A DNA stretch of 64,000 nucleotides from Clostridia bacterium (GCA_017504945.1 JAFVQJ010000013.1:14414-78413); one strand, 5' to 3'; counted from the first letter of the stretch, positions 5,703 to 45,931 are shown. A program made the numbers and translations. The notes: generated by a model from the letters alone, not told the origin.

Positions 5703-5745
5703 AACATTTCCTCCAAAAGCATCATAAAATATATACGTTACTATT

Positions 5746-5774
5746 ATTATATATCACTTTGCAAAAGATTTCAA
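5746..5774 (-). promoter_or_regulatory. sigma-A type promoter for the SGNH hydrolase gene
   Basis: TTGAAA-17 nt-TATAAT on the minus strand, about 45 nt upstream of the start. Confidence 0.55.
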
Positions 5775-5815
5775 CTGCTTTAATCGGGCAATTCACAGCT
5801 TTTTTTACAATTTTC

Positions 5816-5849: not shown

Positions 5850-6138
5850 CGTTAAAGGCGTATGAGCGAAAACAAGTAGCCGTTTGGAGTTTTTAAGAGA
5901 GCCGTCGGTCGGTGCGAGCACGGCAAACGAAGATCGGACGAATACCTTTCGCCAGCTGCTTTCCCCAAAGGCAACGAGTAGGGAAAGACGGGTCCTTGCC
6001 CGTTACAGCATGTCGCCGCAGATCTTGGCGAACAGTCTGCGGAGAGTGAGGTCATATTCCGTAAGGATATGATAAATTGAGGTGGTAACACGTTTAACGA
6101 CGTCCTCTGTATTTTTAAATACGGGGGATGTTTTTTAT
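5850..6138 (+). promoter_or_regulatory. T-box riboswitch leader (tRNA-sensing transcription attenuator)
   Basis: The leader has an AGAGAG bay and a GGUGCGAG distal-loop motif. It has an S-turn AGUA with a GAA-UAC-C specifier region and an F-box CCGUUA (about 6000). The T-box-like sequence is GAGGUGGUAACACG (6079-6092). An 11-bp terminator stem is followed by AUGUUUUUUAUU (6104-6138). Confidence 0.8.
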
Positions 6139-6199
6139 TCCCCGAAAACGCCGCTCTTTTCGCCGACCGCGGCAGTTTTTTCGGAAAGGAATGGTAAAA

Positions 6200-7717
6200 A
6201 TGGCGATCAAGATCATTATTTTAATCCTCTTTACTGCAATTACCGTTGCAATCGGCTTCTTTTGCAGTAAAAGCACCAAGGGGCTTGGAGATTTCGTGCT
6301 CGGCGGACGTAAGATAGGTCCGTGGCTCACGGCATTTTCCTACGGAACGAGCTATTTCTCGGCAGTCGTTTTCATCGGCTATGCCGGTCAATTTGGCTGG
6401 AATTTCGGTATTTCGGCGCTGTGGATAGGGCTCGGCAACGCATTTATCGGCTCGCTTCTCGCTTGGGTGGTGCTCGGCAGACGCACCCGCGTTATGACGA
6501 AGCATCTCGATGCCGCAACTATGCCCGACTTCTTTGCAAAGCGCTTTGACAGCAATTCTCTCAAGATAGTTACCGCGCTCATTATTTTCGTATTTTTGGT
6601 TCCCTACTCCGCATCGGTCTACAAGGGACTCGGCGGCATCTTCTCTATCGCCTTCGGCATTGATTACACTTGGTGTCTTATAGGCATGGCGGTGCTTACG
6701 GGTATTTACGTTGTAGTGGGCGGTTATCTCGGAACTGCCGCAAACTCGCTCTTTCAGGGCATCGTTATGCTTATCGGAATAGTCGCTGTGCTCGCTTGCG
6801 TTTTGGGTGTAAACGGCGGTCTTGCAGGAACCCTTGAGCTTCTTTCGCAAAAGACGAGCGAAACGGCTCCCAATTTAAACGGTGCCTTCGTTTCCCTCTT
6901 CGGTCCCGACCCGATCTCGCTCTTGAGCGTTGTAATACTTACCAGCCTCGGCACTTGGGGACTTCCTCAGATGGTCCATAAGTTCTACACCATTAAAAAC
7001 GAGAAATCCATCACCACCGGCGCGGTCATATCCACCGTTTTCGCCGTAATCGTTGCGGGCGGTTCCTATTTCCTCGGTGGGCTTGGCAGACTTTTCTACG
7101 ATGAGGAAAAGGTTATTTTCGACAATATCGTTCCCACAATGCTTCAGAAGACCCTGCCCGACGCCCTTATCGGCATCGTTTTGATCCTTCTGCTTGCGGC
7201 GTCGATGTCGACTCTTTCCTCCCTCGTTCTCACCTCGAGCTCGACGGTAACTCTCGATTTCTTAAAGCCTCTTTTCAAAAAGGCATCTCTCTTTAACGAA
7301 AACAAAAAGCAGGTAGTCGTTATAAGAGTCCTTTGCGTTCTCTTCGTTTTGCTCTCGCTTGCAATAGCGCTCTTCCCCAACGCGCTTATCACCTCGCTTA
7401 TGAGCCTTTCGTGGGGCACTCTTGCAGGCTGCTTCTTAGGTCCCTTCCTCTACGGACTTTACTGGAAAAGGACTACCAAGCTCTCGGTGTGGATATCTAT
7501 TCTCGCAGGCGTTTTGCTAAACGTTGCAAATCTCCTCTTCCCCTTTACCACACCCACCATCGCAGGTGCGGCTTCAATGATTCTTTCGCTTTTGATAATT
7601 CCGGCAGTAAGCCTTATTACTCCCAAAATGGCGGCAGACAAAACCGACGCGATCTTCTCCTGCTACTCGAAAGAGTCGGTAACAACTCAGCGCACAGCGC
7701 TTCCCGAGGAAAACTGA
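6200..7717 (+). CDS. sodium:solute symporter family (SSF) transporter
   Basis: About 13 predicted TM helices with SSF-like sequence (GTSYFSAVVFIGYAGQFGW). I prefer the start at MAIKIII, which has a GGAAAGGA RBS. The ORF-track start at 6128 lies inside the T-box terminator. Confidence 0.85.
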   Translation: MAIKIIILILFTAITVAIGFFCSKSTKGLGDFVLGGRKIGPWLTAFSYGTSYFSAVVFIGYAGQFGWNFGISALWIGLGNAFIGSLLAWVVLGRRTRVMTKHLDAATMPDFFAKRFDSNSLKIVTALIIFVFLVPYSASVYKGLGGIFSIAFGIDYTWCLIGMAVLTGIYVVVGGYLGTAANSLFQGIVMLIGIVAVLACVLGVNGGLAGTLELLSQKTSETAPNLNGAFVSLFGPDPISLLSVVILTSLGTWGLPQMVHKFYTIKNEKSITTGAVISTVFAVIVAGGSYFLGGLGRLFYDEEKVIFDNIVPTMLQKTLPDALIGIVLILLLAASMSTLSSLVLTSSSTVTLDFLKPLFKKASLFNENKKQVVVIRVLCVLFVLLSLAIALFPNALITSLMSLSWGTLAGCFLGPFLYGLYWKRTTKLSVWISILAGVLLNVANLLFPFTTPTIAGAASMILSLLIIPAVSLITPKMAADKTDAIFSCYSKESVTTQRTALPEEN

Positions 7718-33733: not shown

Positions 33734-34197
33734 AAAAACACCTCTTTGATCGTTCTACGTTTTTATGATAACACATAAATTATCGTTTGTCAATAACTTT
33801 TTATCATTTTTCACTATTTTATTGGCTCTATTAAACTTTATAGTTGGTGTGAATAAATCGCCAAAATATTGAATATTTGCGGTATTTTTATGCATATTTT
33901 CCTTCAATATGCGATAAATAGTATAAATATTCTCATAAAATTTTTAAAAAATTTTTTATTATAGCAGATTGGCTACAACATTGTTTATACAATTGTTTCA
34001 ATGTTCACTCCCAAAAGCATTTATCGAAATGACGTTGGGTTATGCGTTGCCGGATATAATCACTCAAAGAAAACAGATGAAGAGGTAGATTTAAAAAGCA
34101 TTTGTAACGTTAAACTTGTGAAAACTCGAAAAAATATCGTTTTATAAAGTGATTTAACCCAAAACTGAGGCATACCTCATTCAAATCGATGGTAATA

Positions 34198-34227
34198 TCT
34201 GCTAAAATTTTGTAAAATTTTAGCAGA
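34198..34227. promoter_or_regulatory. perfect 14-bp inverted repeat (candidate operator or hairpin) abutting the RBS of the HTH gene
   Basis: TCTGCTAAAATTTT-GT-AAAATTTTAGCAGA, ending 14 nt before the GTG start. Confidence 0.5.
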
Positions 34228-34241
34228 AGAGGTCGATTTAC

Positions 34242-34505
34242 GTGAGAAAACTGTCGAAAGAAATCTTGAAGGAATGGTTCAATAATCAGCTTATACAAGC
34301 AAGAGCCGAAAATAATTTTACGCAACTGCAAATGTCCGAGCTATTGTTAATGGATGAAAGGTCTTATATTGATTTGGAGCACGGCAAAACCGGATGCAGC
34401 GCATTAACCTTGGTTTTGTTTATCATTTATTTTGTTAAAGACAAAAATGAATTCTTTGATACGCTGAAAAATGAGCTCAAAAAGATAAATGAAGACGTTG
34501 CATAA
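34242..34505 (+). CDS. XRE-like helix-turn-helix protein
   Basis: 87 aa with a GTG start and a GAGG RBS. The HTH-like segment is FTQLQMSELLLMDERSYIDLEHGKT. Confidence 0.55.
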   Translation: MRKLSKEILKEWFNNQLIQARAENNFTQLQMSELLLMDERSYIDLEHGKTGCSALTLVLFIIYFVKDKNEFFDTLKNELKKINEDVA

Positions 34506-34689
34506 TACCAAAAGATCTTTACGGGAAGAAATTGAGTTCAGGATTTCTAAGCCGGTGACGGAAAGCGTTTGCTTTGTTAACGGTTACAGATACGCCGTTT
34601 GCCCGAAATGCAAAAGCACGCTTGAACGGGAATACTTAAATTATTGCGACCGTTGCGGGCAGGCGTTAGATTGGAGAAAATATAAATAA
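34489..34689 (+). CDS. small zinc-ribbon protein
   Basis: 66 aa with CPKC..(13)..CDRC. It overlaps the HTH gene by 17 nt and has no clear SD. Confidence 0.4.
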   Translation: MKTLHNTKRSLREEIEFRISKPVTESVCFVNGYRYAVCPKCKSTLEREYLNYCDRCGQALDWRKYK

Positions 34690-34746
34690 AAAATTAGCTC
34701 GAATTGCACTGCTTTCAAGAAGAAAAAATTAGCTTTACAGCACAAA

Positions 34747-34786
34747 AGAAAGAGCCTTGCTTTTTAGCAGGGCTCTTATCTTTTAA
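34747..34786. terminator. bidirectional intrinsic terminator
   Basis: 10-bp stem AGAGCCTTGC/GCAGGGCTCT between convergent genes. Confidence 0.7.
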
Positions 34787-35514
34787 TTTGCGGTGGAGGC
34801 ATTTAATTGAATATATTCTTTTCTTTTCAGTAAAACCTTTTCTATAAATTTCGGGTAAATATCGGTAACTGCAAGCAATAGGTTTGTTCCAGAAGCTGAT
34901 AATACAGCTATCAAAAGATACTGCTTATTCAAAGCAAGATTCATTGAAGGAGTTTGATCGGCCAAAAAGATTCCATAAAGTACAAAGTACAAAACAGTTA
35001 ATGCAATTACGGGAAGAATGGGAAGTAAAATATAATATCCAAGTTTTTTCACTGTTGCTTGCACTGTGGTTATAATAGTTGTTTTTCCAAAAAGGCGATT
35101 ATCTATTTGCCACAAGATAAATACAGGCAATGTAACCGACAATGCAAAAATAAATATTTGTAGCGGAACAAACACTATTCCTTCGCTCATTTTTGAAACT
35201 AAACTGCAAATTAAACCTAACATAGAGAGAAGCAAAGAATCTCTTATTATAACTAAATACTGTATTTTTTGTTTTAATACATTTTTGCAGTATAAATAAA
35301 ACAGTACAAAATATCCGGCAAAAGTTCCAAAAAACGGAAGTAAAGAACTTTCATAGTTAAAAAGAAAAGTTGCTATTTGCTTGAAGAAAAGCGGCGCACC
35401 GTTTTCATCGTCAACTATACCGTATACCAAATTTCTCAAAGGAATAGTAATAAAATATACTGACAACAGTACTAATGCATTAACTACCATTGAAATTTTA
35501 ATTATCTTTTTCAT
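34783..35514 (-). CDS. polytopic (about 7 TM) membrane protein, candidate immunity protein for the orphan Rhs toxin
   Basis: An AAGGAG RBS lies in the 17-nt gap after the orphan toxin stop. The gene is strongly hydrophobic and AT-rich. Confidence 0.55.
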   Translation of the reverse strand: MKKIIKISMVVNALVLLSVYFITIPLRNLVYGIVDDENGAPLFFKQIATFLFNYESSLLPFFGTFAGYFVLFYLYCKNVLKQKIQYLVIIRDSLLLSMLGLICSLVSKMSEGIVFVPLQIFIFALSVTLPVFILWQIDNRLFGKTTIITTVQATVKKLGYYILLPILPVIALTVLYFVLYGIFLADQTPSMNLALNKQYLLIAVLSASGTNLLLAVTDIYPKFIEKVLLKRKEYIQLNASTAN

Positions 35515-35531
35515 ATTTTACTCCTTATAAA

Positions 35532-36737
35532 TCAATAAAAGGTTTGGGTTTGAACTGGTCCATAGTATCTATGACTATATTGATAGCTTCCGTACATTTG
35601 GTCAAATACTGTAATAGCTCGCTTCTTTTTATAATATGTAGTAACCATTCTATATGACATACTTTTAATTATTGCTATATCTATATTCCCGTCTATCCCT
35701 CTAATTGAATTTTCTATATATCTATTTGTGGGTTTATAAGAGCCAATACCAGTTATAAGAACGTCTATATAAAATGAGATATTGGGAATATATGATCCTA
35801 ATAGAAGCTCTGCGCATGCTTTAAAAGGTTCTATTGCAAGGGAATTAGCGAAGTTATTTACAAAAGAAACAAAATCGTTTGCTGCTTTATATGTTTTATC
35901 AAGATAATTTCTCCATTTTTTTGCTGACATTACCTGAGTTTTTATAACAACTTCAACCCCGGCTTGAGTGCCATAGAATAATCCATTTTTTATTCTGTCA
36001 CATCCTATGTAAGCAAGATTAAGATATCCAGATTCATCATAATACATATGGCTAAAATAAAGATCATACTGTTTTAAAACCTGTGGCATTTGAAGCGGAT
36101 CTGCAATAACAAAGCTATTAGATGGTGAATAAAAATAAGTTGTACCTTGTGGATCGAAGTATACTATCGGATTATTCCCACAATATGTAAACAAATTAAA
36201 TCCTAATAAATCATCGTTAATTTGTTCGTCCTCATTAATCCACCTACCCACCTCAGGATCATAATACCTGCTGATGCAGTAATAAAATCCCGTATCGGTG
36301 TCGTAGTAATAGCCTCTGTAGCGTAAGGGATTTATAGTTCCTAAAGTAGAAGCCATAGAGCCGGTGGTAGAAAGTAGTTTACCCCAGCTATCATAGCTGT
36401 ATTCAACTACAACTGCGCCGGTGTTATCAATAATAGCTATAATATCTCCTTGTAAATTTAATACGTAGAAATATTCAACTCCATTATAGCTAATTGAAAG
36501 AGGCGCACCGTTTTCATCATAACGGAAGAAAAGCTCGTTTGTTATTACGTTATTGTTTTCAGTATACTGATGAACTATCTTACCGTTATCGTAGGTATAA
36601 CGGGTAATTCCAAAGCTATCTTGCTTTGAAACTCTTAAACCACTATCATCGTAACTATACTGCACCAAAACACCGTTTTTAGCGGTAGAAATTAGCCTTC
36701 TGCCTTCCCACGTCATAGTTCTTCCCATATAATTCAA
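35532..36737 (-). CDS. orphan Rhs C-terminal cassette (Rhs core tail + divergent toxin domain), no canonical start
   Basis: The first ~177 aa of the homologous frame (starting ITYDAIGNPL, ~29 nt upstream of 36737) are about 90% identical to residues near the end of the main Rhs core. The NNPIVYFDPQG core-end motif is followed by a unique 203-aa tail. The frame is open to about 36775 without an ATG or SD. Confidence 0.8.
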   Translation of the reverse strand: MNYMGRTMTWEGRRLISTAKNGVLVQYSYDDSGLRVSKQDSFGITRYTYDNGKIVHQYTENNNVITNELFFRYDENGAPLSISYNGVEYFYVLNLQGDIIAIIDNTGAVVVEYSYDSWGKLLSTTGSMASTLGTINPLRYRGYYYDTDTGFYYCISRYYDPEVGRWINEDEQINDDLLGFNLFTYCGNNPIVYFDPQGTTYFYSPSNSFVIADPLQMPQVLKQYDLYFSHMYYDESGYLNLAYIGCDRIKNGLFYGTQAGVEVVIKTQVMSAKKWRNYLDKTYKAANDFVSFVNNFANSLAIEPFKACAELLLGSYIPNISFYIDVLITGIGSYKPTNRYIENSIRGIDGNIDIAIIKSMSYRMVTTYYKKKRAITVFDQMYGSYQYSHRYYGPVQTQTFY

Positions 36738-36766
36738 GGGATTTCCTATTGCATCGTAGGTTATAG
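36242..36766 (-). repeat. direct repeat copy A (orphan) of the Rhs core 3' region
   Basis: It aligns with 38000-38522. I counted 17 amino-acid differences in 177 aligned codons by hand. Confidence 0.85.
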
Positions 36767-36861
36767 CTTTACATAATTATTTTACCATAATATTCTCCAA
36801 CATTCAACAAATTTTGAAAAATTTGTAAAAATATATAATGAGTAAAATTTCAAAAAAGGAA

Positions 36862-36905
36862 CAAAAACCCCGAAATTCGTAATGAGTTTCGGGGGGTTTT
36901 TGTTT
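36862..36905. terminator. bidirectional intrinsic terminator after the Rhs-immunity operon
   Basis: CCCCGAAA/TTTCGGGG stem flanked by A and T runs, 43 nt downstream of the immunity gene stop. Confidence 0.75.
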
Positions 36906-36947
36906 AAGCTAGGATTAATTCTTTTTAGTTATAGTACTTGTACCACA

Positions 36948-37316
36948 TCAACTCATCAAGTAAGTTTTAATAAAATCAACATATAAATCAACCAGTTTTA
37001 TAAATTGTTCACGTGATATTGAGTATGAGTTGTGTGGCAATAAATATATCTCCTTTAACAATTGTGAAAATTTCTTTTCCTCCCAATTTAAATTATCAAT
37101 TACAACATTATTATAACTCGTTTTTACTAACGTTTTTGTGTTTTCCCTTATTGTAAGGTCCAAAAACTCATTATAACAATCAAAATGTATGGATATGAGA
37201 AAATCATTTTTTCGAAATTGTAGTGCATAAAAGGTACTATTCTCAATAATGTTGCTATAAGAATAACCCATTTTAATTAAAAAAAGAAATTTGTGTTTAA
37301 TTATTTTTATATTCAC
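36948..37316 (-). CDS. candidate cognate immunity protein of the main Rhs toxin
   Basis: 122 aa, very AT-rich and apparently cytoplasmic. The GTG start is preceded by a GAGGGA RBS that directly follows the Rhs stop codon. Confidence 0.6.
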   Translation of the reverse strand: MNIKIIKHKFLFLIKMGYSYSNIIENSTFYALQFRKNDFLISIHFDCYNEFLDLTIRENTKTLVKTSYNNVVIDNLNWEEKKFSQLLKEIYLLPHNSYSISREQFIKLVDLYVDFIKTYLMS

Positions 37317-37326
37317 GCTAATTCCC

Positions 37327-40300
37327 TCAAAACATCTTCACATAATTGAAATAGCCATTTACTACTTGCCGTTCCATTGCATACCATCTACTGGTAATAT
37401 TAGCACCTACCGAGCCAGTATCATAGATAGGGGCGCCAAGTTTTGTCATTCTATTAATAAACGCTTTATTATGCATAAGACTGAGGTCATCCGCGAGTTG
37501 TTCCCCAATTTTAGGAATTTTTTTAATTAAGTTATATCCTTTCATTGGTTTATATGTTGTCGCATCAACAACTTGTGCCGCTTTTCCGACGCGGCTCATA
37601 TCTTCTCCTATTGCAATACCTTGTTTGGCGGTTTTAACAGCTTTAACTGCACCAATTGATGAAGAAGCAAATGCACCTATGCCACCCCACATAAATCCAT
37701 CGCAGGCCCCGTCTATCATTCCTTGGACACCACCAGTTATATATCCTGTGACAGCACCAGACAATGTGCTGGCCGCTACGCCAATCAATAATGGTGCAAC
37801 TGCACCACCAGTTGCAACTGTAATAGCAACTGCTGCAACCGTAGCCACAGCACCTATTGTAACTTTTAGCCAATTGGGCATAGACCAGTTGCCATTAGTG
37901 TCAAAACGATTAACAGGATTATTCATACAATATGCGAACATATTATATCCCTGTATTGAATCACCAACACCAGCAATTATACTATCTACATTTATAAACC
38001 TACCCACCTCGGGATCATAATATCTGCTGTTGCAATAATAGAATCCCGTATCGGTGTCGTAGTAATAGCCTCTGTAACGCAATGGGTTTACTACGCCTAA
38101 AGTGGTTGCCATTGTGCCTGTGGTAGCAATCAATTTACCCCAGCTATCGTAGGAATACTCAACTACAACGGCGCCGGTATTATCAATAATACCAATAATA
38201 TCGCCCTGTAAGTTTAATACATAGAAATATTCTACGCCATTATAGCTTACAGAAAGAGGCGCGCCGTTTTCATCATAGCGGAAGAAAAGCTCATTGCTTA
38301 TTACGTTATTGTTTTCGGTGTACTGATGAACAATTCTACCGTTATCATAAGTATAACGTGTTATACCGTTGGAATCTTGCTTGGAAAGTCTTAAACCACT
38401 ATCATCGTAACTATACTGTATTAATGCGCCATTCTTGGTGGTGGAAATTAACCTTCTGCCTTCCCACGTCATAGTTCTTCCCATATAATTTAAGGGATTT
38501 CCTATTGCATCGTAGGTTATAGTCTGTCCGTTATACGAGGTAAGAAGATCTTTCCAATCGTTGTTGGAATAACCGTAATTTTTTACACTTACAGCAGTTC
38601 CGAGAGTTTCCGCGGTTGTATAAGCATACTCACTCTTTGAAAGAATATTTCCTCCGGCATCGTAGGTGTAGGTTATGGTCTTGCTTATAAAGCCGTTATT
38701 CTCTCTTATGAGTTGACCTAACGAATCGTACACGTAGCTTACGGTGCTTGTGCCGTCGCTTATCGAGGTTATATTGCCGTTGTAATCATAGGTATAGCTG
38801 AAATTCTTAAACTGTGTGCCGGGAAGATTGATTCTGAAATTAGAAACTATACCCGATTGGAGCAGAGTATCGCCCACGATCTTCGAACGGTAGGTAAAGA
38901 GGTATTCAAGCAGTGTTACCGCGTTTTCGCCCGTTTGCTTTATAAGTGTTTTACCCGAATTTCTTCCAATTGCATCGGCGCTTGAATGGGCAAGGTAAGT
39001 TCTTTCGTTATCGCCTTCACCCTCTACGAATTTCACGGTAACGGTGCCGTCGCCGTTTTCGCCGTCCTCATAGGTGTATTCGGTTTCCTTTACGGTTCCG
39101 TTAATAACACGAGTCTGCTTTATAAGGCGGTTTTCGCTGTCGAAGGTCTGGGTAACATTGTAGCTGTAGCCCGTTCCCGAAATGGAGCTTACCTTCATTG
39201 CGGCAAGGTCGCCGTCGTAGTTATAATAATAGTTTGTCTTTAAGTTGTTACCGTTGTCTACCGTTTCAATAAGTCTGCCGAGGCTGTCGTAGGTAAATTC
39301 ATAGCGAGCATCGGTGGCATCATTTACGAAGATGGCGGTTACATTATCGTTTTCCACACCGCCTGCTACGTTGGTATCTTGGTTTGCATACTCGTAGCTT
39401 ACTTTGTAGCCGTTTCCGTAAACGGCATTATCTAAAACGCCGTTATGTAAGATATCCTTGTAGTTGTTAGTAACGAGGACTGTGCCGCCAACGGATACTT
39501 CGGTGGTCTGACCGTATTTATTGTAGTCAAAGCCGTATTCCACGCCGTTTAAGCTGGTGATCTTCGAAAGTCTGCCTTCAGTATCATACTCATAATTAAC
39601 CGAATCGTTGCCTGCAGTAATAGAGGTTACTCTGTGGTTTGAATCGTAGCTGTAGCTTACGGTATTCCCTTCATTATCTGTAGCAGAGGTAAGAAGTCCC
39701 GTTGAGAGATCGTAGTTATATGCCGTATGGGATTCCTGCAGCTCGTCGAATACCTTTGTGAGATAGTTACCGTTTGCGGTGTATTCGTTTAGTGTTTCGG
39801 TATAGTAAACAGTATCGCCCTTGGTGTGAGTCGTGCGGGAAAGCAGGGTGTTGCCGTAAGCGTCACGCGATACGGTGTTGGTCTCGGTGGTAACCGAATC
39901 GGCAGATACTCTTATTCCCGTTGTGTCGCCGTCAGACTTGGTTATATTTATTGTCTGAGTTTTTTCGGTGCCGTCTGCCTTTTTAACGGTGCGGGTAACG
40001 GAGGTCACTTCGCCGTCTTCGTTATAGGTGTAGCTGTAGGTCTCGTCGTCGAAGGTGGTCTGCTCGCTAATATAGCCCGCCGAGTTGTAGGTGTAGATCG
40101 TTCCCGCCTTTTCCTTGAATGCCTGAATGCCGTCGAAATATGCGGTGTTGCTGTTATAGTTATAGCAGAGGTAAATATCTATTGAGGTGTAGTTATTCTG
40201 TGCGGTTACGGTGCCGTAAACGTATTGCCAATCGTTTACGTAGGAGTTGAAGGACACGTAGCCTGCGGTTTTATCCGCGTCGTTCTCGGCATCGTTGAAA

Positions 40301-43300
40301 ACCACGAGGATTCCGAATCTAAGAGGAGTGTTTTCGGATACGGGAAGGGAGCTTGCTTTCGCCCAGCCGGAGAAGGTGATGGTATCGCCTGCGTTGCCCG
40401 AGCCGGAGATGGTCTGGGAGGCATACTTTTCGGCATCGACCTGTCCCGTTATTTTGAGGGCGTTTGCATCTCTGTAGTCGGAGGTGTTATCCGAGTCTGA
40501 TGCGACCGTTAACGCGGTGCCTGTCCAATTAGTTATGCCGTTATTGAAGTCGCCGTTTGAGATTATATTATCTCTTTGCGAGGCGTTATCTCCTATAGTT
40601 ACCTGGAGATCGTCAAAATATGCAATACCTTTAGCGCCGCTTGCTCCGAGATAAAGCTTTAACGTTTCGGTGCCGGTTGAGCTTGCGCCGTACTCTGCGG
40701 TTACCTTTACGCGTGTCCATTCACCCAAGGAGACTTCCTCGGATTTGGTTTTTACTATTTTATTTGCCATTTCAACGGCGATATATGCATTTACGTCGGT
40801 TGCCGCCGTTTTTATCCACGCGGAGAAGGTTATTACGGTTGCCTTATTGGCAGGGACGGTGAGATTGTAATTTGCTTCGAGAGTTGTATTATCAGTGCCC
40901 CTGGTAATCATAAAGCCGTACATGCCACTGCGGCCGCCTGCGCTTCTCATTCCGTAGTCTACCACTCCGAGTGAGGAAGAAAAAGAAACGGTTCCTTTCT
41001 CAAAGCTCGGGTCGGCTAAGAGATTTATTGTCTGGTTCTGCGGACGGGAGGATAAGGTCAGCTTATTTATACTGCCCTCGCCGTATTCTCTGCCGTAATC
41101 ATAGAAATAGCCGTTGCCGTTCTCATCTGAGGACGAGATAAGGTTTCCTCTTGAATCGAAATTCATATAGGAAATGTTGCCCTTTGAATCGGTCAACTTT
41201 GTTCTGTAGGTGGCATACTCGAAAGTTAAGGTTTCGTCTGCTTCGCTTTGCTGGTTTCCGCTGTAATAGGAAACTGTTTCAACTTTATTGTTGCTACAGG
41301 TAAATACGTATCTGTCACCCGTATCCTTGTCAATAAATGTGGTCGTTCCATTCGTAAATGAAGTATAGCTCGAAATTGCCGATTCGCTGTTACCGTTAGG
41401 TCCCACCGCAGTAAGAGGCATATTCACCGCATTAAAAGTATATGCGGTTTTCGAAATATAACCTTCTGTAGTATTAGTAATGAGCGTGTGATCAGCTACG
41501 GTATTACCGAAATACCGTATTTCCGTAAAATACAACACTGCACCGCTGTTATAGATGAATTTGTATATACGTCCCGCACCGTCTATTATGCAGTCAATAA
41601 CGTAGCCGGTGGTGTTTTTGTAATATATCTGAATTTTGTTATCCGAAACAGTAACACCTGTGCCTGCAAGTGTATTTTCGGAGTTTTTATCCGTTATTGC
41701 AACAAGTCTGCCCGAGGCATCGGTGTCGAACATATAACGCAGTCCCGAGTCGGAATGATAGCAATAATGTGTCTTGCCGTTATAGGTTACCGTTTCAAAA
41801 TATTCGCTCGGCCACGCTTCCGCTTCGTATATTCCACTTTCATTTTCGGTTATTCTTGTGGAGTATTTATCCGGTACGTAAATTCCTTTTGTAACGTCTC
41901 CGACCTTATATTGCTGCAACACGAAATACCTTTTGCTGTGTGTGCCATCGATATATTCAATATAATTTTCGCTACCTATGGTCTTAAGGGTAATATGCTG
42001 ATGGTAGTTTGTTTTTACAAACATACCGATATTGTAGGTCATCCAGCCGATATTGTTACCAAAAACCATATTTATTGAAACCGGCAAAATGTTTCCGTCA
42101 TAGCCTATATCATTTCTTATTACGGTAAGACTTCCGGAAAACGGATTTATATATGCCGTTCCCGCAGAGCCCATATCCACGGTATAGCTCGGATTATCCG
42201 TAAGTCCGCTTACGTTTCTGTATGCAAAGTAAATGCAAGGACGGCGGTTTTCGGTGCCGTATTCCGCAGATCTGAAGGTTGCATAATTGCCGGACTCTTC
42301 GGTGCGGTATTTGAGCATAAAGCCAAGGTTATTGTCTTCCGATTCATACCATTTGTTTACGAGGGTAGTTACGTCGAAATAGTAATATTCCGGCGCAGTC
42401 ATTTCACAGCTGTCGATTACTGCTGTTTCATAATCCGGTTTATTGTTCCAGTTTATACTGTTATACGTAAAGGTCGATTTGATATTGTGAAGCTCGGCAT
42501 ATCCGCTTCCGTTATAGTTTGTGCGCCAGATCTTGAGCTCTGCTTTTATAAGCACGTCGCCTGCGGCAAGGGTGGGCAGATAATCCTGGTTGAACTTCAT
42601 ATAGGTTCTGTTTATGCCGCGACCCTCACAGCCCATTCTTAAGAAGTTCTGATTCCAATAATTTAAGGTAGGATAGCCCGAGGCAACGGTAACGTCCTGC
42701 ATTACGTCGCTTCCCGTTCCGCCGGTTACGGTGGGATCTACGGTTACGGGATATACTCGGTCATCGGAAGAAAGCCATTCGTATGCCGGCGTGTAGGTGA
42801 GTATGTATTTGTTTTTCGAGGAAGTGGGAGATAACGTTACGGAGATATCGTCGGAATACTCTCCGTTTGCATCCTCCATAAAGGGCGCGTAGATCGTAAA
42901 GAAAACTTCGCCCGTGCTTCTGTCCGAGAAGGTAAGGCTTCCGTCGTCGTAAAGAGTGGCGACCAAGCCGTGAGTGTTTATCTCATAGGAATAGCCCGTT
43001 TCCCTTTCGGGCATTTTGTTAAGTATTATCTCTTCCTTTAGCTCATTGCTCTTTATGGTATACGCTATATCCGTATCCTTGAAGGTGTTTTTGTAATTGA
43101 GCTTGGAATATATCTTACTGCTTACGTCGGTCTTATCCGTGCTGCGAGATGCTTTAGAGGCTATTTTGCCCTCTGCGGCATTGGCGTTTAAGAGCTTGAA
43201 GGTAAGCTTTGCATTATTTTTTGATACGGATATTTCAGAACCGTTGTTTAGCTGATTGGGCAGCTCTACCGAGAAAGAGTTATCTTTATTCTTAAAGGTA

Positions 43301-43656
43301 TTTGTCTTTTCATCGGCAACAACGGAGTTATCTATTTCCTTCCAGCTTCCGTTTTCGAGATAATGCACCGCCTCGGGATACATTACGGCGATCATTATTC
43401 CTTCCTCGGTATTAAAATGCTTTACCGATTCTTCACGGAGTGAAATATCTTCATCTGTTATAGTAAGATCTTCAAAATCTATATTTTCGTAATCCAGGTA
43501 GGTGTTTACAACGTTTTGCTTTTTTGAAGAATTATTAGCTTTTTCGGAAGTTTCAAAGGTTATTCCTGCTTGCGCAAAGCCCTGTATTGCAAGCGTTACG
43601 AACAAGGTAACGCTGATGAGCAGTGCACAGGATTTCTTTAGTAACCTGATAAACAT
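37327..43656 (-). CDS. Rhs/YD-repeat polymorphic toxin, WapA-like (Sec signal peptide)
   Basis: 2109 aa with a signal peptide ending AQA. A DNRLRE-like N-domain and two CBM4_9-like jelly-roll modules (NGDFNNGITNW .. AYFDGIQ) come first. Dozens of YD repeats follow. The Rhs core tail is PLRYRGYYYDTDTGFYYCNSRYYDPEVGRF .. NPVNRFDTNG, and a 185-aa C-terminal domain ends the protein. Confidence 0.95.
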   Translation of the reverse strand: MFIRLLKKSCALLISVTLFVTLAIQGFAQAGITFETSEKANNSSKKQNVVNTYLDYENIDFEDLTITDEDISLREESVKHFNTEEGIMIAVMYPEAVHYLENGSWKEIDNSVVADEKTNTFKNKDNSFSVELPNQLNNGSEISVSKNNAKLTFKLLNANAAEGKIASKASRSTDKTDVSSKIYSKLNYKNTFKDTDIAYTIKSNELKEEIILNKMPERETGYSYEINTHGLVATLYDDGSLTFSDRSTGEVFFTIYAPFMEDANGEYSDDISVTLSPTSSKNKYILTYTPAYEWLSSDDRVYPVTVDPTVTGGTGSDVMQDVTVASGYPTLNYWNQNFLRMGCEGRGINRTYMKFNQDYLPTLAAGDVLIKAELKIWRTNYNGSGYAELHNIKSTFTYNSINWNNKPDYETAVIDSCEMTAPEYYYFDVTTLVNKWYESEDNNLGFMLKYRTEESGNYATFRSAEYGTENRRPCIYFAYRNVSGLTDNPSYTVDMGSAGTAYINPFSGSLTVIRNDIGYDGNILPVSINMVFGNNIGWMTYNIGMFVKTNYHQHITLKTIGSENYIEYIDGTHSKRYFVLQQYKVGDVTKGIYVPDKYSTRITENESGIYEAEAWPSEYFETVTYNGKTHYCYHSDSGLRYMFDTDASGRLVAITDKNSENTLAGTGVTVSDNKIQIYYKNTTGYVIDCIIDGAGRIYKFIYNSGAVLYFTEIRYFGNTVADHTLITNTTEGYISKTAYTFNAVNMPLTAVGPNGNSESAISSYTSFTNGTTTFIDKDTGDRYVFTCSNNKVETVSYYSGNQQSEADETLTFEYATYRTKLTDSKGNISYMNFDSRGNLISSSDENGNGYFYDYGREYGEGSINKLTLSSRPQNQTINLLADPSFEKGTVSFSSSLGVVDYGMRSAGGRSGMYGFMITRGTDNTTLEANYNLTVPANKATVITFSAWIKTAATDVNAYIAVEMANKIVKTKSEEVSLGEWTRVKVTAEYGASSTGTETLKLYLGASGAKGIAYFDDLQVTIGDNASQRDNIISNGDFNNGITNWTGTALTVASDSDNTSDYRDANALKITGQVDAEKYASQTISGSGNAGDTITFSGWAKASSLPVSENTPLRFGILVVFNDAENDADKTAGYVSFNSYVNDWQYVYGTVTAQNNYTSIDIYLCYNYNSNTAYFDGIQAFKEKAGTIYTYNSAGYISEQTTFDDETYSYTYNEDGEVTSVTRTVKKADGTEKTQTINITKSDGDTTGIRVSADSVTTETNTVSRDAYGNTLLSRTTHTKGDTVYYTETLNEYTANGNYLTKVFDELQESHTAYNYDLSTGLLTSATDNEGNTVSYSYDSNHRVTSITAGNDSVNYEYDTEGRLSKITSLNGVEYGFDYNKYGQTTEVSVGGTVLVTNNYKDILHNGVLDNAVYGNGYKVSYEYANQDTNVAGGVENDNVTAIFVNDATDARYEFTYDSLGRLIETVDNGNNLKTNYYYNYDGDLAAMKVSSISGTGYSYNVTQTFDSENRLIKQTRVINGTVKETEYTYEDGENGDGTVTVKFVEGEGDNERTYLAHSSADAIGRNSGKTLIKQTGENAVTLLEYLFTYRSKIVGDTLLQSGIVSNFRINLPGTQFKNFSYTYDYNGNITSISDGTSTVSYVYDSLGQLIRENNGFISKTITYTYDAGGNILSKSEYAYTTAETLGTAVSVKNYGYSNNDWKDLLTSYNGQTITYDAIGNPLNYMGRTMTWEGRRLISTTKNGALIQYSYDDSGLRLSKQDSNGITRYTYDNGRIVHQYTENNNVISNELFFRYDENGAPLSVSYNGVEYFYVLNLQGDIIGIIDNTGAVVVEYSYDSWGKLIATTGTMATTLGVVNPLRYRGYYYDTDTGFYYCNSRYYDPEVGRFINVDSIIAGVGDSIQGYNMFAYCMNNPVNRFDTNGNWSMPNWLKVTIGAVATVAAVAITVATGGAVAPLLIGVAASTLSGAVTGYITGGVQGMIDGACDGFMWGGIGAFASSSIGAVKAVKTAKQGIAIGEDMSRVGKAAQVVDATTYKPMKGYNLIKKIPKIGEQLADDLSLMHNKAFINRMTKLGAPIYDTGSVGANITSRWYAMERQVVNGYFNYVKMF
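38000..38522 (-). repeat. direct repeat copy B (inside the main Rhs gene)
   Basis: Partner of 36242-36766. Confidence 0.85.
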
Positions 43657-43794
43657 GATGATTTTCCTTTCTTTTATGATATTTTCTCGTTGTCGTTTGT
43701 TATAAAGATAGCTATATAATCCTTTTTTTCACCTCCTTTTTTAAATATTGAATTCTTGCTCCGGTTCAACCATATTTATTCCTCCTTTTTAATT

Positions 43795-43856
43795 CATAAA
43801 AATAAAACAGACGCACTTGCCCTTTTCTGAATTGAAAGAAAGGCAGTACGTCTGTC
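43795..43856 (-). terminator. intrinsic terminator inside the Rhs 5' leader (T2)
   Basis: A long imperfect stem (CAGACG..ACUGCCUUU / AAAGGGCA..CGUCUG) is followed by UUUUAUUUUAU on the minus strand, about 140 nt before the Rhs ATG. Confidence 0.7.
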
Positions 43857-44064
43857 TCATGCGTGAGAAATGTGGAATTATTAATTTGTTTTTGCTATTG
43901 CGACCTTCACAATGTTCCCGCCGTCTTACAGCAATGATTCTGCTCTGAGGCAGTTTCACCCGAACGGCAACTACCTTTCCACATATAAATAATTAACTGC
44001 TGTTATTTTCTGAACTACACTATGGTTCATTGGTTGTCTTGATTTAACTTTTTTGGTTATTTCT
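43857..44064 (-). promoter_or_regulatory. structured leader RNA (candidate riboswitch/attenuator aptamer region)
   Basis: A 115-nt domain (43870-43984) is closed by the 8-bp helix AUGUGGAA/UUCCACAU. GGAAAGGUAGU (43970-43980) can instead pair over 11 bp with the terminator arm ACUGCCUUUCU (43837-43847). Confidence 0.45.
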
Positions 44065-44070
44065 ACCATA

Positions 44071-44100
44071 ATTATACTATACCGCACTCGGTTTTGTCAA
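44071..44100 (-). promoter_or_regulatory. sigma-A promoter P2 (minus strand)
   Basis: TTGACA (44100-44095), 18-nt spacer, TATAAT (44076-44071). Confidence 0.65.
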
Positions 44101-44115
44101 GGGTTGTATTATGCC

Positions 44116-44190
44116 GAAAAAGGAAAAATAAAAAGCACTCTGCAATAAATCCCATAGGCTCCAATTGCCAAGCGAAATATTGCAGAGTGT
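44116..44190 (-). terminator. intrinsic terminator T1 (minus strand)
   Basis: A 12-13-bp perfect stem CACUCUGCAAUA/UAUUGCAGAGUG has a 30-nt loop. It is followed by CUUUUUAUUUUUCCUUUUU. Confidence 0.65.
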
Positions 44191-44200
44191 TCTTGTCATT

Positions 44201-44280
44201 ATGATCCACCTTTATGCAGGAGTGGGGCCCTGGACATAAACGATTCGCCTTTATACAGGAGCGAAACCCTGAACATTAAA
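44201..44280 (-). repeat. tandem imperfect repeat (2 units, 39-40 nt) each able to fold as an H-type pseudoknot
   Basis: Unit A (44241-44280) and unit B (44201-44240) share UGUyCAGGG..CUCCUGyAUAAAGG..AUC. The loop to 3'-tail pairings are UUCGCU:GGCGAA in A and CCACU:GGUGG in B. Confidence 0.6.
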
Positions 44281-44290
44281 GCTTAAGAAG

Positions 44291-44319
44291 ATTATACCAT
44301 ACTATACAGTGTGTGTAAA
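44291..44319 (-). promoter_or_regulatory. sigma-A promoter P1 with extended -10 (minus strand)
   Basis: TTTACA (44319-44314), 17-nt spacer ending in TGG, TATAAT (44296-44291). Confidence 0.6.
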
Positions 44320-44537
44320 TAAATGGAATTTTTGGAGAAATTTCCATAAAAACCTCAACTGATTCATTTCAATGATATCTCGGTTACAATATAATCCTCT
44401 TCCCATTTTCTATGGTTTTTGCTTCATCTGTAAAAGAACCAACACCGTAAACATCATCATGATTTAAAATACCGATCCATCAGTTTGTACTAGGGCACTA
44501 TTAAAACAATATTTTCCGAGATTCATTGTAAATTTTG

Positions 44538-44586
44538 AGGGCTTATTTTATTCGAAACTTTTTTGCAAAAAGCCCTTTTATTTGTC
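44538..44586 (+). terminator. possible intrinsic terminator insulating rmuC from the island
   Basis: A 7-bp stem AGGGCTT/AAGCCCT with a large 25-nt loop, followed by TTTTATTTG. The evidence is weak. Confidence 0.35.
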
Positions 44587-44644
44587 TTAAATATCTGTTA
44601 TAATATTATAATGTATAATTATATTTTGTTTGAGGAGAAGCTTT

Positions 44645-45931
44645 ATGGAATATCTTGCCGTTATACTTTCGGCTCTTGCCTGCCTTTTGTCTGCCGCGGC
44701 GCTTGTTGCGGTGCTTACCAAAAAGCAAAAGAGCAACGCCGATGAGATAAAAAGAATAGTGAGCGAGCAGTCAAGAGCAGACGGCGAAGCGCTCGACAGC
44801 AAGCTCAAATACATACTCACCGCGCAGGGTGAGGCAAACCGCACCTTAAGCGAAAATCAAAGCGCCTCGATGGAAACTCTTCGTAAGACCGTTTCCGATC
44901 TTTCCAACTCGATGGAGGGCAGATTCAAGACCTTTTCCGAATCGAACGAAAAGAGTCTTAACGCCATTAAGGAAAATACCGAAAAAAGCATTGACGGTAT
45001 GAAAAAGGAAAACGAGGCAAAGTTAAACGAAATAAAGATAGTTGTTGACGAAAAGCTTCAAAAGACTTTAAACGAGCGCTTTGCGCAGTCCTTTAACACC
45101 GTTTCCGAAAGACTTGAGGCGGTGCAGAAGGGGCTTGGCGAGATGCAGTCGCTCGCTTCAAACGTGGGCGACCTCAAAAACGCTCTTTTAAACGTAAAAA
45201 CGAGCGGAAATATGGGCGAGATACAGCTTGAGAGCATTCTCACCGAAATACTCCCCCAAAAGCTTTGGGAAAAGCAGTTTGCGGTAAGCAAGGGCAGTCT
45301 TGACCGCGTCGACTTCGTTATCAAGCTCCCCGGAAGCGCAAACGTTCCCGTTTATCTTCCCATCGACTCCAAGTTCCCCGTTATAACCTATAACAGTCTT
45401 CTTGCCGCCTACGAAACGGGCGACAAGGCGGCTGTCGACGCCGCTCGCAAGGAGCTTGCAAGAGCGCTCAAGGCGCAGGCTAAATCAATAAAGGAAAAAT
45501 ATATAGAGCCTCCCGTTACCACCGATTTTGCAATCATGTTCCTCCCCTCCGAGGGGCTTTATGCCGAGGCGGCAAAGAGCGAGCTTATAGAAACGCTTAT
45601 GCACGATTATAAAATAAACGTCTGCGGTCCCTCTACCGTTGCCGCGCTTCTTAACAGCTTGCAGATGGGATTCAGCACACTTGAGATACAGAAGCGCTCA
45701 AGTGAGGTGTGGGGCATTCTCGGCGCCGTCAAAACGGAGTTTGACAAATTCGGCGGTCTTCTTGAAAAAACGCAGAAAAAGCTTGACGACGCAAGCAAGG
45801 ACCTCGATACTCTTATAGGCACCCGTTCAAGAATGATACGTTCAAAGTTGAGGGGCGTTTCTGCGCTTGACGAGGGCGAATCGAAAAGGTTGCTTGACAT
45901 CACGCCCGACAGCGACGTAGAGGAAGAATAA
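44645..45931 (+). CDS. rmuC: DNA recombination protein RmuC
   Basis: It has an N-terminal TM helix, a long coiled-coil and a RmuC-like C-terminal nuclease-fold region (VDFVIKLP .. LPIDSKFP). The start at MEYLAV has a GAGGAG RBS. Confidence 0.85.
   Translation: MEYLAVILSALACLLSAAALVAVLTKKQKSNADEIKRIVSEQSRADGEALDSKLKYILTAQGEANRTLSENQSASMETLRKTVSDLSNSMEGRFKTFSESNEKSLNAIKENTEKSIDGMKKENEAKLNEIKIVVDEKLQKTLNERFAQSFNTVSERLEAVQKGLGEMQSLASNVGDLKNALLNVKTSGNMGEIQLESILTEILPQKLWEKQFAVSKGSLDRVDFVIKLPGSANVPVYLPIDSKFPVITYNSLLAAYETGDKAAVDAARKELARALKAQAKSIKEKYIEPPVTTDFAIMFLPSEGLYAEAAKSELIETLMHDYKINVCGPSTVAALLNSLQMGFSTLEIQKRSSEVWGILGAVKTEFDKFGGLLEKTQKKLDDASKDLDTLIGTRSRMIRSKLRGVSALDEGESKRLLDITPDSDVEEE

Follow-up and report, generated by a model that had tools for sequence, protein, structure and literature searches.

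A 64,000-nucleotide (nt) stretch of DNA from an uncultured Clostridia bacterium (GCA_017504945.1 JAFVQJ010000013.1:14414-78413; hereafter the window) was analyzed for the nature of a small element at positions 44116-44319, the parts of which are read from the minus strand. The element comprises a promoter (P1), two imperfect repeats and an intrinsic terminator, and the sequence supports the layout of a discrete minus-strand transcription unit with a strong promoter, structured repeats and a terminator. It is cargo of a strain-variable island that carries an Rhs gene, and its closest known anatomy is that of the RNA antitoxin arrays in type III toxin-antitoxin systems, two points that an earlier note on this DNA had missed. 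The reading favoured here, held tentatively and at well below even probability, is that the element encodes an orphan (or trans-acting) antitoxin-like, protein-binding small RNA (sRNA) on this island.

Promoters, repeats and terminator between rmuC and the Rhs gene

The genes rmuC (44645-45931, plus strand) and Rhs (43656-37327, minus strand; Pfam) are divergent, and the gap of ~988-990 bp between them holds the element. Along the minus strand the gap contains P1, the two 39-nt repeats, a terminator hairpin, a U-tract, a second promoter (P2) and a 410-nt leader, in this order, followed by the Rhs gene. The features and their sources are as follows.

44291..44319, minus strand: promoter P1 (TTTACA at 44319-44314, 17 nt, TATAAT at 44296-44291); promoter scan, 11/12 matches.
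44238..44276, minus strand: repeat unit A, 39 nt, AUGUUCAGGGUUUCGCUCCUGUAUAAAGGCGAAUCGUUU; sequence and repeat finder, covariance model 56.2 bits.
44199..44237, minus strand: repeat unit B, 39 nt, AUGUCCAGGGCCCCACUCCUGCAUAAAGGUGGAUCAUAA; sequence and repeat finder, covariance model 55.0 bits.
44136..44189, minus strand: terminator hairpin, its 12-bp stem perfectly paired; inverted repeat I4 (17 nt, 88% complementary) and folds.
44117..44134, minus strand: U-tract UUUUUAUUUUUCCUUUUU, 3' of the hairpin; sequence.
44071..44100, minus strand: promoter P2 (TTGACA, 18 nt, TATAAT) of the Rhs leader and gene; promoter scan, 12/12 matches.
33824..44542, no strand assigned: Rhs island, 10.7 kb, which carries the element; comparison with a conspecific strain and relatives.

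P1 is of the extended -10 type, with TG two bases upstream of TATAAT (TTTACA-17-TGgTATAAT), and the transcription start predicted from it lies at about 44284-44282. The terminator stem starts 9 nt past unit B. Its 5' arm CACUCUGCAAUA (44189-44178) and 3' arm UAUUGCAGAGUG (44147-44136) enclose a partly paired loop of 30 nt, and A/U pairs lengthen the stem at its base. The folding energy of the hairpin region is -28.4 kcal/mol, and that of the stem duplex by itself -17.2 kcal/mol; a terminator scanner missed this hairpin because it accepts only loops of 3-8 nt. The whole 181-nt region is more stable than its shuffles (z = -2.95). P2 starts 16 nt beyond the U-tract, and the leader that follows it contains a second terminator-like hairpin and an upstream open reading frame (ORF) of 10 codons.

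The earlier note had described an extended -10 promoter at 44319-44291 on the minus strand, two adjacent imperfect repeats of about 40 nt, a terminator with a 12-13-bp stem and a U-tract, and a position directly upstream of P2 and the Rhs leader. All of these were recovered at, or a few bases from, the positions it gave: the promoter with 11 of 12 matches plus the TG, the repeats as two 39-nt direct repeats returned by the repeat finder, the stem as a perfect 12 bp followed by the U-tract, and P2 at its distance of 16 nt. The promoter, the repeat and the terminator clearly exceed chance. The element has its own promoter, a non-coding body, a terminator and an intergenic location, the features of an intrinsically terminated sRNA gene. 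Two roles had been proposed in the note, an sRNA or a second attenuator; the anatomy of a stand-alone sRNA gene holds, and the role of an attenuator of Rhs is not supported.

The -10 regions of P1 (44291-44302) and P2 (44071-44082) have a motif in common, GTATAGTAT...TATAAT, forming a 12-nt repeat with 92% identity, and judging by this similarity the two promoters may be related by duplication. An invertible promoter cassette was considered on account of a 25-nt inverted repeat (19/25) at 44049-44073 and 44327-44351, which surrounds P1-P2, and was ruled out, as 12.5% of Markov-shuffled regions equal that repeat (p about 0.125). The Rhs leader (43657-44070, minus strand) matches no Rfam family. 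It contains a long terminator-like hairpin with a U-tract (43860-43802), an upstream ORF of 10 codons (MVEPEQEFNI, start 43773) with a strong Shine-Dalgarno sequence, AAAGGAGG, and, after this ORF, a second Shine-Dalgarno-like sequence, AAGGAGGUG, with no start codon. This region of the leader may be a separate attenuator.

Pairing potential of the two repeat units

Units A and B are direct and adjacent, and 28 of their 39 positions are identical (74% by the repeat finder). Allowing at most three mismatches, the unit consensus found these two copies only in the 64 kb, and none in 100 shuffles. H-type pairings are possible in each unit. The P1 helix, CAGG/CCUG, is the same in both, formed by 44271-44268 with 44259-44256 in unit A and by 44232-44229 with 44220-44217 in unit B. 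The P2 helix has 6 bp in unit A (UUCGCU/GGCGAA, 44265-44260 with 44249-44244) and 5 bp in unit B (CCACU/GGUGG, 44225-44221 with 44210-44206). Loop L1 has 2-3 nt, L2 is absent, and L3 is a 6-nt y-AUAAA segment, which reads UAUAAA in unit A (44255-44250) and CAUAAA in unit B (44216-44211). These pairings and this geometry agree with those in the earlier note, which had also reported correctly that unit B contains a near copy, CACUCCUGCAUA, of the terminator 5' arm.

The nine pairs shared by the aligned units are standard in both (9/9, or 100% of cells). Units A and B differ at 11 of 39 positions, none within the CAGG/CCUG helix and five within the P2 strands. Four of these five make two double changes (from unit A to unit B, U-A to C-G and G-C to A-U) and the fifth breaks a terminal pair unique to unit A. 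The earlier note had offered such double compensatory changes in support of the pseudoknot; both P2 pairs were confirmed, but with two copies (n = 2) they are only suggestive as support of this kind. Each unit has two G-U pairs, one in a UGU/AUA extension of the P1 helix and one in the P2 helix. These correspond to A-C mismatches on the opposite strand, and the predicted structure is therefore specific to the minus strand, the one transcribed from P1.

When the 3' partners were slid by 1-3 columns, 28-56% pairing and no double changes were obtained, the true register being unique. A column-shuffle control, powerless with two sequences, reached the observed value in 119 of 500 shuffles. Neutral divergence was also simulated, with 10 substitutions (transitions, 8; transversions, 2) introduced into a single unit: the nine pairs remained intact in 5.6% of the runs, and intact with at least two double changes in 0.5%, figures that are suggestive at most because the test was post hoc. 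Per unit, the P1 helix contributes about -4.5 kcal/mol and the P2 helix about -5 kcal/mol, and each helix is energetically marginal. The two pseudoknots come to ~ -13 kcal/mol, a rough estimate made with Dirks-Pierce penalties. When both units are folded jointly, the minimum-free-energy nested structure reaches -18.3 kcal/mol with P1 strands exchanged between units, a swap open to any tandem hairpin repeat. This inter-unit fold leaves the covarying P2 segments unpaired and therefore cannot account for the double changes. The comparison of the two units is suggestive of an H-type pseudoknot, which is sterically possible and consistent with the two compensatory changes.

On the minus strand, an AUG stands at the head of unit A (44276), of unit B (44237) and of the segment after unit B (44199), successive AUGs being 39 and 38 nt apart. 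Both unit tails, AAAGGCGAA in A and AAAGGUGGA in B, are Shine-Dalgarno-like and lie 5-10 nt ahead of the next AUG; the ancestral repeat unit may have been a translation-initiation region. Two further candidate repeats were discarded. The global alignment score of a third, degenerate repeat extending into the terminator 5' arm (AUGACAAGAACACUCUGCAAUA) was equalled by 28% of shuffles, and the occurrence of UUUCGCU in both the unit A loop and the terminator loop is not significant, with an estimated ~0.8 repeated 7-mers expected in 165 nt.

The Rhs island and searches for relatives of the element

The island is bordered by a ~10-bp direct repeat, TTATTTTATT, and is inserted between a DUF2975 gene and rmuC. 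In a conspecific strain the flanks are 98.8% identical, the island is absent and the DUF2975 gene lies 186 bp from rmuC; the nearest two relatives (RmuC 78-81% identity) also lack the island and show the same DUF2975-rmuC arrangement. It is this absence that identifies the element as cargo. Among four island-bearing metagenome contigs that were compared, all with identical RmuC, the intergenic region (988 bp) is identical. Toxin-antitoxin modules are common on strain-variable islands.

The island encodes the Rhs protein (2109 aa), an orphan Rhs C-terminal module with a membrane protein, a helix-turn-helix (HTH) protein and a zinc-ribbon protein; a scan of island ORFs revealed no recombinase domain in those covered. 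Directly downstream of the Rhs gene is a 122-aa ORF with no family match, which is taken, from position alone, to be the Rhs immunity gene. The orphan module (401 aa, 35532-36737, minus strand), the N-terminal portion of which is a near duplicate of a segment of the main Rhs gene, precedes a multi-pass membrane protein of 243 aa (34783-35514, minus strand), and displaced toxin/immunity cassettes are usually laid out in this way. Across 34-38 kb the GC content falls to 0.33-0.35.

An Rhs ortholog of 83% protein identity in another metagenome-assembled genome is homologous only from codon 7, and the region upstream of it is unrelated. Rhs homologs of 31-33% identity also lack the element and have unrelated upstream regions. 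The element is therefore not a general feature of Rhs leaders and, as it was found neither in Rhs relatives nor at the loci of RmuC orthologs, a comparative alignment is impossible to build. Ahead of the promoter of the 83% ortholog (locus 5640-5790), four tandem TGCCATTTTGGCAA-like (TGCCA-N4-TGGCA-like) palindromes are spaced ~31 bp apart, and a serine-recombinase (Resolvase/Recombinase) gene lies just upstream.

Rfam 15, run at gathering score over the whole window, returned a T-box elsewhere and nothing at the element; in the 1.3 kb that surround the element (43500-44800), a threshold as loose as E = 10 brought up only noise, namely microRNA and small nuclear RNA models. A known RNA family is ruled out by these results, in keeping with the misfit to the preQ1-I and SAM-II consensus that the earlier note had remarked on. 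The T-box leader (RF00230, 101.3 bits, window 5852-6110, plus strand), the sole Rfam family reaching gathering score in the window, lies upstream of a 529-aa ORF (6128-7717).

The unit pattern TGTNCAGG-N8-CCTGNATAAAGG was searched in 185,579 species-representative genomes and in the JGI metagenomes. It matched 10 times in the genomes, where ~17 matches are expected by chance (an estimate), and 16 times in the metagenomes. Each match stands alone and has a tail that is not complementary to its loop, as was explicitly verified for the metagenome set; they fall mostly in unrelated taxa and, for most, apparently in coding sequence. In viral contigs a looser pattern gave 13 chance matches only; blastn in distant mode gave no match in plasmids and phages; and with a covariance model derived from units A and B, neither the window nor 8 related loci yielded an additional copy. 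Recurrence of the tandem units in other Clostridia or in metagenomes, which the earlier note had raised, was not seen in either the genome or the metagenome scan.

Readings of the element and comparison with known RNAs

As no toxin gene follows the terminator, the element is read as a protein-binding, antitoxin-like pseudoknot RNA that stands alone; we infer that the RNA is made, folds into the pseudoknots and is protein-bound. Transcription from P1 would yield an RNA of ~165 nt, its 5' part consisting of the two diverged 39-nt repeats. Each repeat would fold locally into an H-type pseudoknot, with a 5-6-bp stem 2 stacked directly on top of a 4-bp stem 1, a first loop of 2-3 nt and a conserved A-rich loop of 6 nt positioned for the minor groove of stem 1, and a single-stranded linker of ~11 nt would lie behind each pseudoknot. 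The long hairpin and U-tract would terminate the transcript and insulate it from the Rhs promoter P2. The element lies near one end of the Rhs toxin island and would be a self-contained small-RNA gene. It may be a relic that persisted after loss of the toxin gene or its replacement by the P2-Rhs module, or it may act in trans on a partner encoded elsewhere.

Several observations weigh against this antitoxin-like RNA. The endoribonuclease toxin (ToxN, CptN, TenpN, AbiQ fold) found 3' of the terminator in type III loci is missing. No suitably sized ORF lies there; three-frame translations of 44125-43640 gave no match in PADLOC or Pfam and no detectable toxin remnant; frames 1 and 2 (numbering 0-2) of the same segment gave no type III toxin in PDB sequences; and no type III toxin model hits any of the 88 ORFs of 90-330 aa in the window. 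A decayed toxin gene after the terminator was rejected on the same grounds. The motif has no homolog in genomes, metagenomes, viral contigs, plasmids, phages or related loci, which places structure and function beyond comparative testing. The repeats have diverged (28/39), and Tandem Repeats Finder did not detect units A and B. The pseudoknot covariation comes from two paralogous copies and is a thin, suggestive signal, and the pseudoknot is plausible but not singled out by thermodynamics.

The main rivals are a non-functional relic, a generic base-pairing sRNA and a riboswitch. The relic is unlikely, yet survives best among them. It would be a tandem duplication that arose by chance between a leftover promoter and a leftover terminator, the complementarity and double changes reflecting chance or quasi-palindrome correction at the DNA level. 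Its restriction to one lineage, with all recovered copies identical, would fit this, as would the marginal stability of the pseudoknot and the presence of only two units, with which the shuffle control is powerless; islands of this kind are mosaic, and the region upstream of the Rhs ortholog is entirely different. However, it is improbable that a terminator of -28 kcal/mol and a pair of promoters close to consensus are leftovers, and nine of nine pairs survive 11 substitutions, none of which falls in the P1 helix; the neutral simulation kept the pairs intact in 5.6% of runs, and in 0.5% with two double changes as well.

Ranked next, and likewise improbable, is a trans-acting sRNA whose C-rich, anti-Shine-Dalgarno-like loop in unit B, CCCCACUCCU, pairs with the ribosome-binding sites of its targets, the repeats being simply two seed-bearing hairpins. 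The C-rich loops of RoxS/RsaE pair with ribosome-binding sites in Firmicutes, and here the layout from promoter to terminator is typical of an sRNA gene, the unit B loop is C-rich and the 181-nt region beats its shuffles in folding. By contrast, the loop of unit A is not C-rich, there is no conservation from which to define a seed, and the loop of either unit can pair with that unit's tail, with compensatory changes between A and B, which points to intramolecular pairing. Duplexes with the P2 leader and the Rhs start were equalled or bettered by 64% of shuffled sRNAs, and pairing with the Rhs leader or start is ruled out as no better than shuffles.

Odds are longer for a cis-acting tandem riboswitch or attenuator, in which ligand-bound pseudoknots would decide the fate of the terminator and gate read-through from P1 into the Rhs leader. 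A compact H-type pseudoknot with an A-rich loop does resemble the geometry of preQ1-I and SAM-II, the P1 helix and A-rich loop are kept in both units while the P2 helix covaries, the terminator is directly 3' of the units, and unit B has the near copy of the terminator 5' arm. Conservation across species is a property of riboswitch classes; here, no Rfam match appeared even at E up to 10, the motif is in none of the 185,579 species genomes or JGI metagenomes beyond chance matches, and no aptamer shared across species was found upstream of related genes, the 83% Rhs ortholog and the other Rhs homologs lacking it. L2 is absent, and hence a junction pocket of the preQ1-I kind. The earlier note had seen switch logic in the pairing of unit B with the terminator 3' arm, which proved weak: at -11.2 kcal/mol this more distant duplex is weaker than the stem (-17.2 kcal/mol), an antiterminator normally captures the 5' arm and not the 3' arm, and nothing upstream is complementary to the 5' arm. 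Finally, the Rhs gene is independent of the element because its own perfect (12/12) promoter starts right after the terminator. With no Rfam match, no conservation outside the island and an independent Rhs promoter, the note's reading of a metabolite riboswitch or attenuator is not upheld.

It is very unlikely that the two CAGG-N8-CCTG palindromes, 39 bp apart, are DNA operators for a regulator of P1 or P2, for which the island's XRE-type HTH protein (87 aa, 34242-34505) would be the candidate. Each unit does contain a perfect 4 + 4 inverted repeat, and the tandem palindromes before the promoter of the 83% Rhs ortholog offer a parallel. However, the flanking symmetry depends on G-U pairs, only 6/8 positions being symmetrical as DNA; operators leave no role for the loop-tail complementarity and the compensatory changes; and the sites are inside the P1 transcript, >100 bp upstream of P2.

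Hardly more can be said for the tandem-pseudoknot RNA as a working type III-like partner of the Rhs polymorphic-toxin module, or as a decoy antitoxin, a proposal given a very small chance. Such a partner may neutralise or chaperone an unrecognised toxic protein of the island, or P1 read-through may set the Rhs dose; as a decoy antitoxin carried by the island, the RNA may act on an abortive-infection toxin of type III whose gene lies elsewhere in the host. If true, partnership with Rhs would define a new class of RNA component in contact-dependent/polymorphic toxin loci.

Least probable of all are two small coding genes, a 25-aa ORF (44276-44199, MFRVSLLYKGESFMSRAPLLHKGGS) and a 40-aa ORF (44199-44077), with the pseudoknots regulating translation of the latter: both ORFs are in the ORF list, the AUGs of units A and B are 39 nt (13 codons) apart, and the 40-aa ORF has a good Shine-Dalgarno sequence and spacing (AAAGGUGGA-N5-AUG) and overlaps the stop of the 25-aa ORF as UAAUG, but the 25-aa ORF has no Shine-Dalgarno sequence, the 40-aa ORF crosses the terminator hairpin, U-tract and P2 (its Phe-rich part being translated U-tract), and the differences between units A and B are mostly non-synonymous. 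HMMER against 1.84 billion representative proteins gave two spurious matches, both to repetitive proteins, and the 40-aa ORF was rejected as a coding gene.

Provided that the RNA is produced and folds as predicted, the element would amount to a type III-antitoxin-like pseudoknot array that lacks a toxin next to it and is situated, in an uncultured Clostridia bacterium, on a polymorphic-toxin (Rhs) island. Antitoxin-like RNAs that stand alone are potential anti-addiction modules, potential decoys against abortive-infection toxins, a role played by phage pseudo-ToxI, and potential relics that record exchange of island cargo. Units A and B also form a compact natural pair whose predicted pseudoknots are distinguished by compensatory changes, suited to mutate-and-rescue folding studies. 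The general importance of the element is limited because it is a single-lineage orphan.

Among known systems, the element resembles preQ1-I, SAM-II and guanidine-III in its compact H-type pseudoknot of ~30 nt with an A-rich 3' loop, and small pseudoknot riboswitches also in that the 3' strand of the unit B P2 helix overlaps a Shine-Dalgarno-like sequence; tandem arrangement is known in some of these classes. It differs from preQ1-I (RF00522), SAM-II and guanidine-III in having no Rfam match, no L2/junction nucleotides and no cross-species conservation, and from small pseudoknot riboswitches in having no credible regulated ORF and weak expression-platform logic. A second likeness is with the abiF motif RNA, or RCd22, from Clostridioides difficile, which carries its motif in tandem and neutralises an Abi toxin through direct contact between RNA and protein (bioRxiv 10.1101/2025.04.15.648962). 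Both are non-coding, with two repeated structured motifs and a terminator, and are located on mobile DNA upstream of a toxic (defence) gene. Unlike RCd22, the element coincides with no family of Rfam, which probably includes the abiF motif, and an Abi_2/AbiF gene was not found in the window.

Type III loci consist of a promoter, tandem repeats of 31-62 nt in 1.9-5.6 copies, a terminator and a toxin gene, which mostly begins 1-50 bp after the terminator (PMC3401426, Table 2 for the repeats). The type III scheme further has the toxin bound and inhibited by each pseudoknotted repeat and cutting the array into units; of this, the pairing potential and the two compensatory changes seen here agree with the pseudoknot. 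The element has tandem short repeats within these ranges (two, of 39 nt) and a palindromic Rho-independent terminator directly after them. With the ToxI, CptI, TenpI and antiQ arrays it has in common the order of promoter (constitutive in those arrays), about two repeats and Rho-independent terminator, a location on mobile or variable DNA and, as predicted here, an H-type pseudoknot per repeat; P2, 16 nt past the terminator, is about where a type III toxin gene would start. By contrast with type III loci, the toxin position is occupied by a second promoter, the 410-nt leader and the 2109-aa Rhs gene, and the repeats have no demonstrable sequence similarity to described type III antitoxins. The defining toxin gene is absent; therefore, type III membership fails and the resemblance is anatomical only. 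CptI of Eubacterium rectale, which is clostridial, is a classic H-type pseudoknot derived from two repeats; its stems are coaxial, its first loop is 1 nt long, and an A-rich loop occupies the stem 1 minor groove (PMC4627078). Many tenpI arrays have two non-identical repeats missed by Tandem Repeats Finder, with a pseudoknot possible in each TenpI repeat and a conserved A stretch in common (PMC12283969). The element shares with CptI the two repeats and, as predicted here, the coaxial stems, the very short first loop and the A-rich loop, and with TenpI two non-identical repeats to which Tandem Repeats Finder is blind; two-repeat CptI and TenpI arrays are the kinds closest to it.

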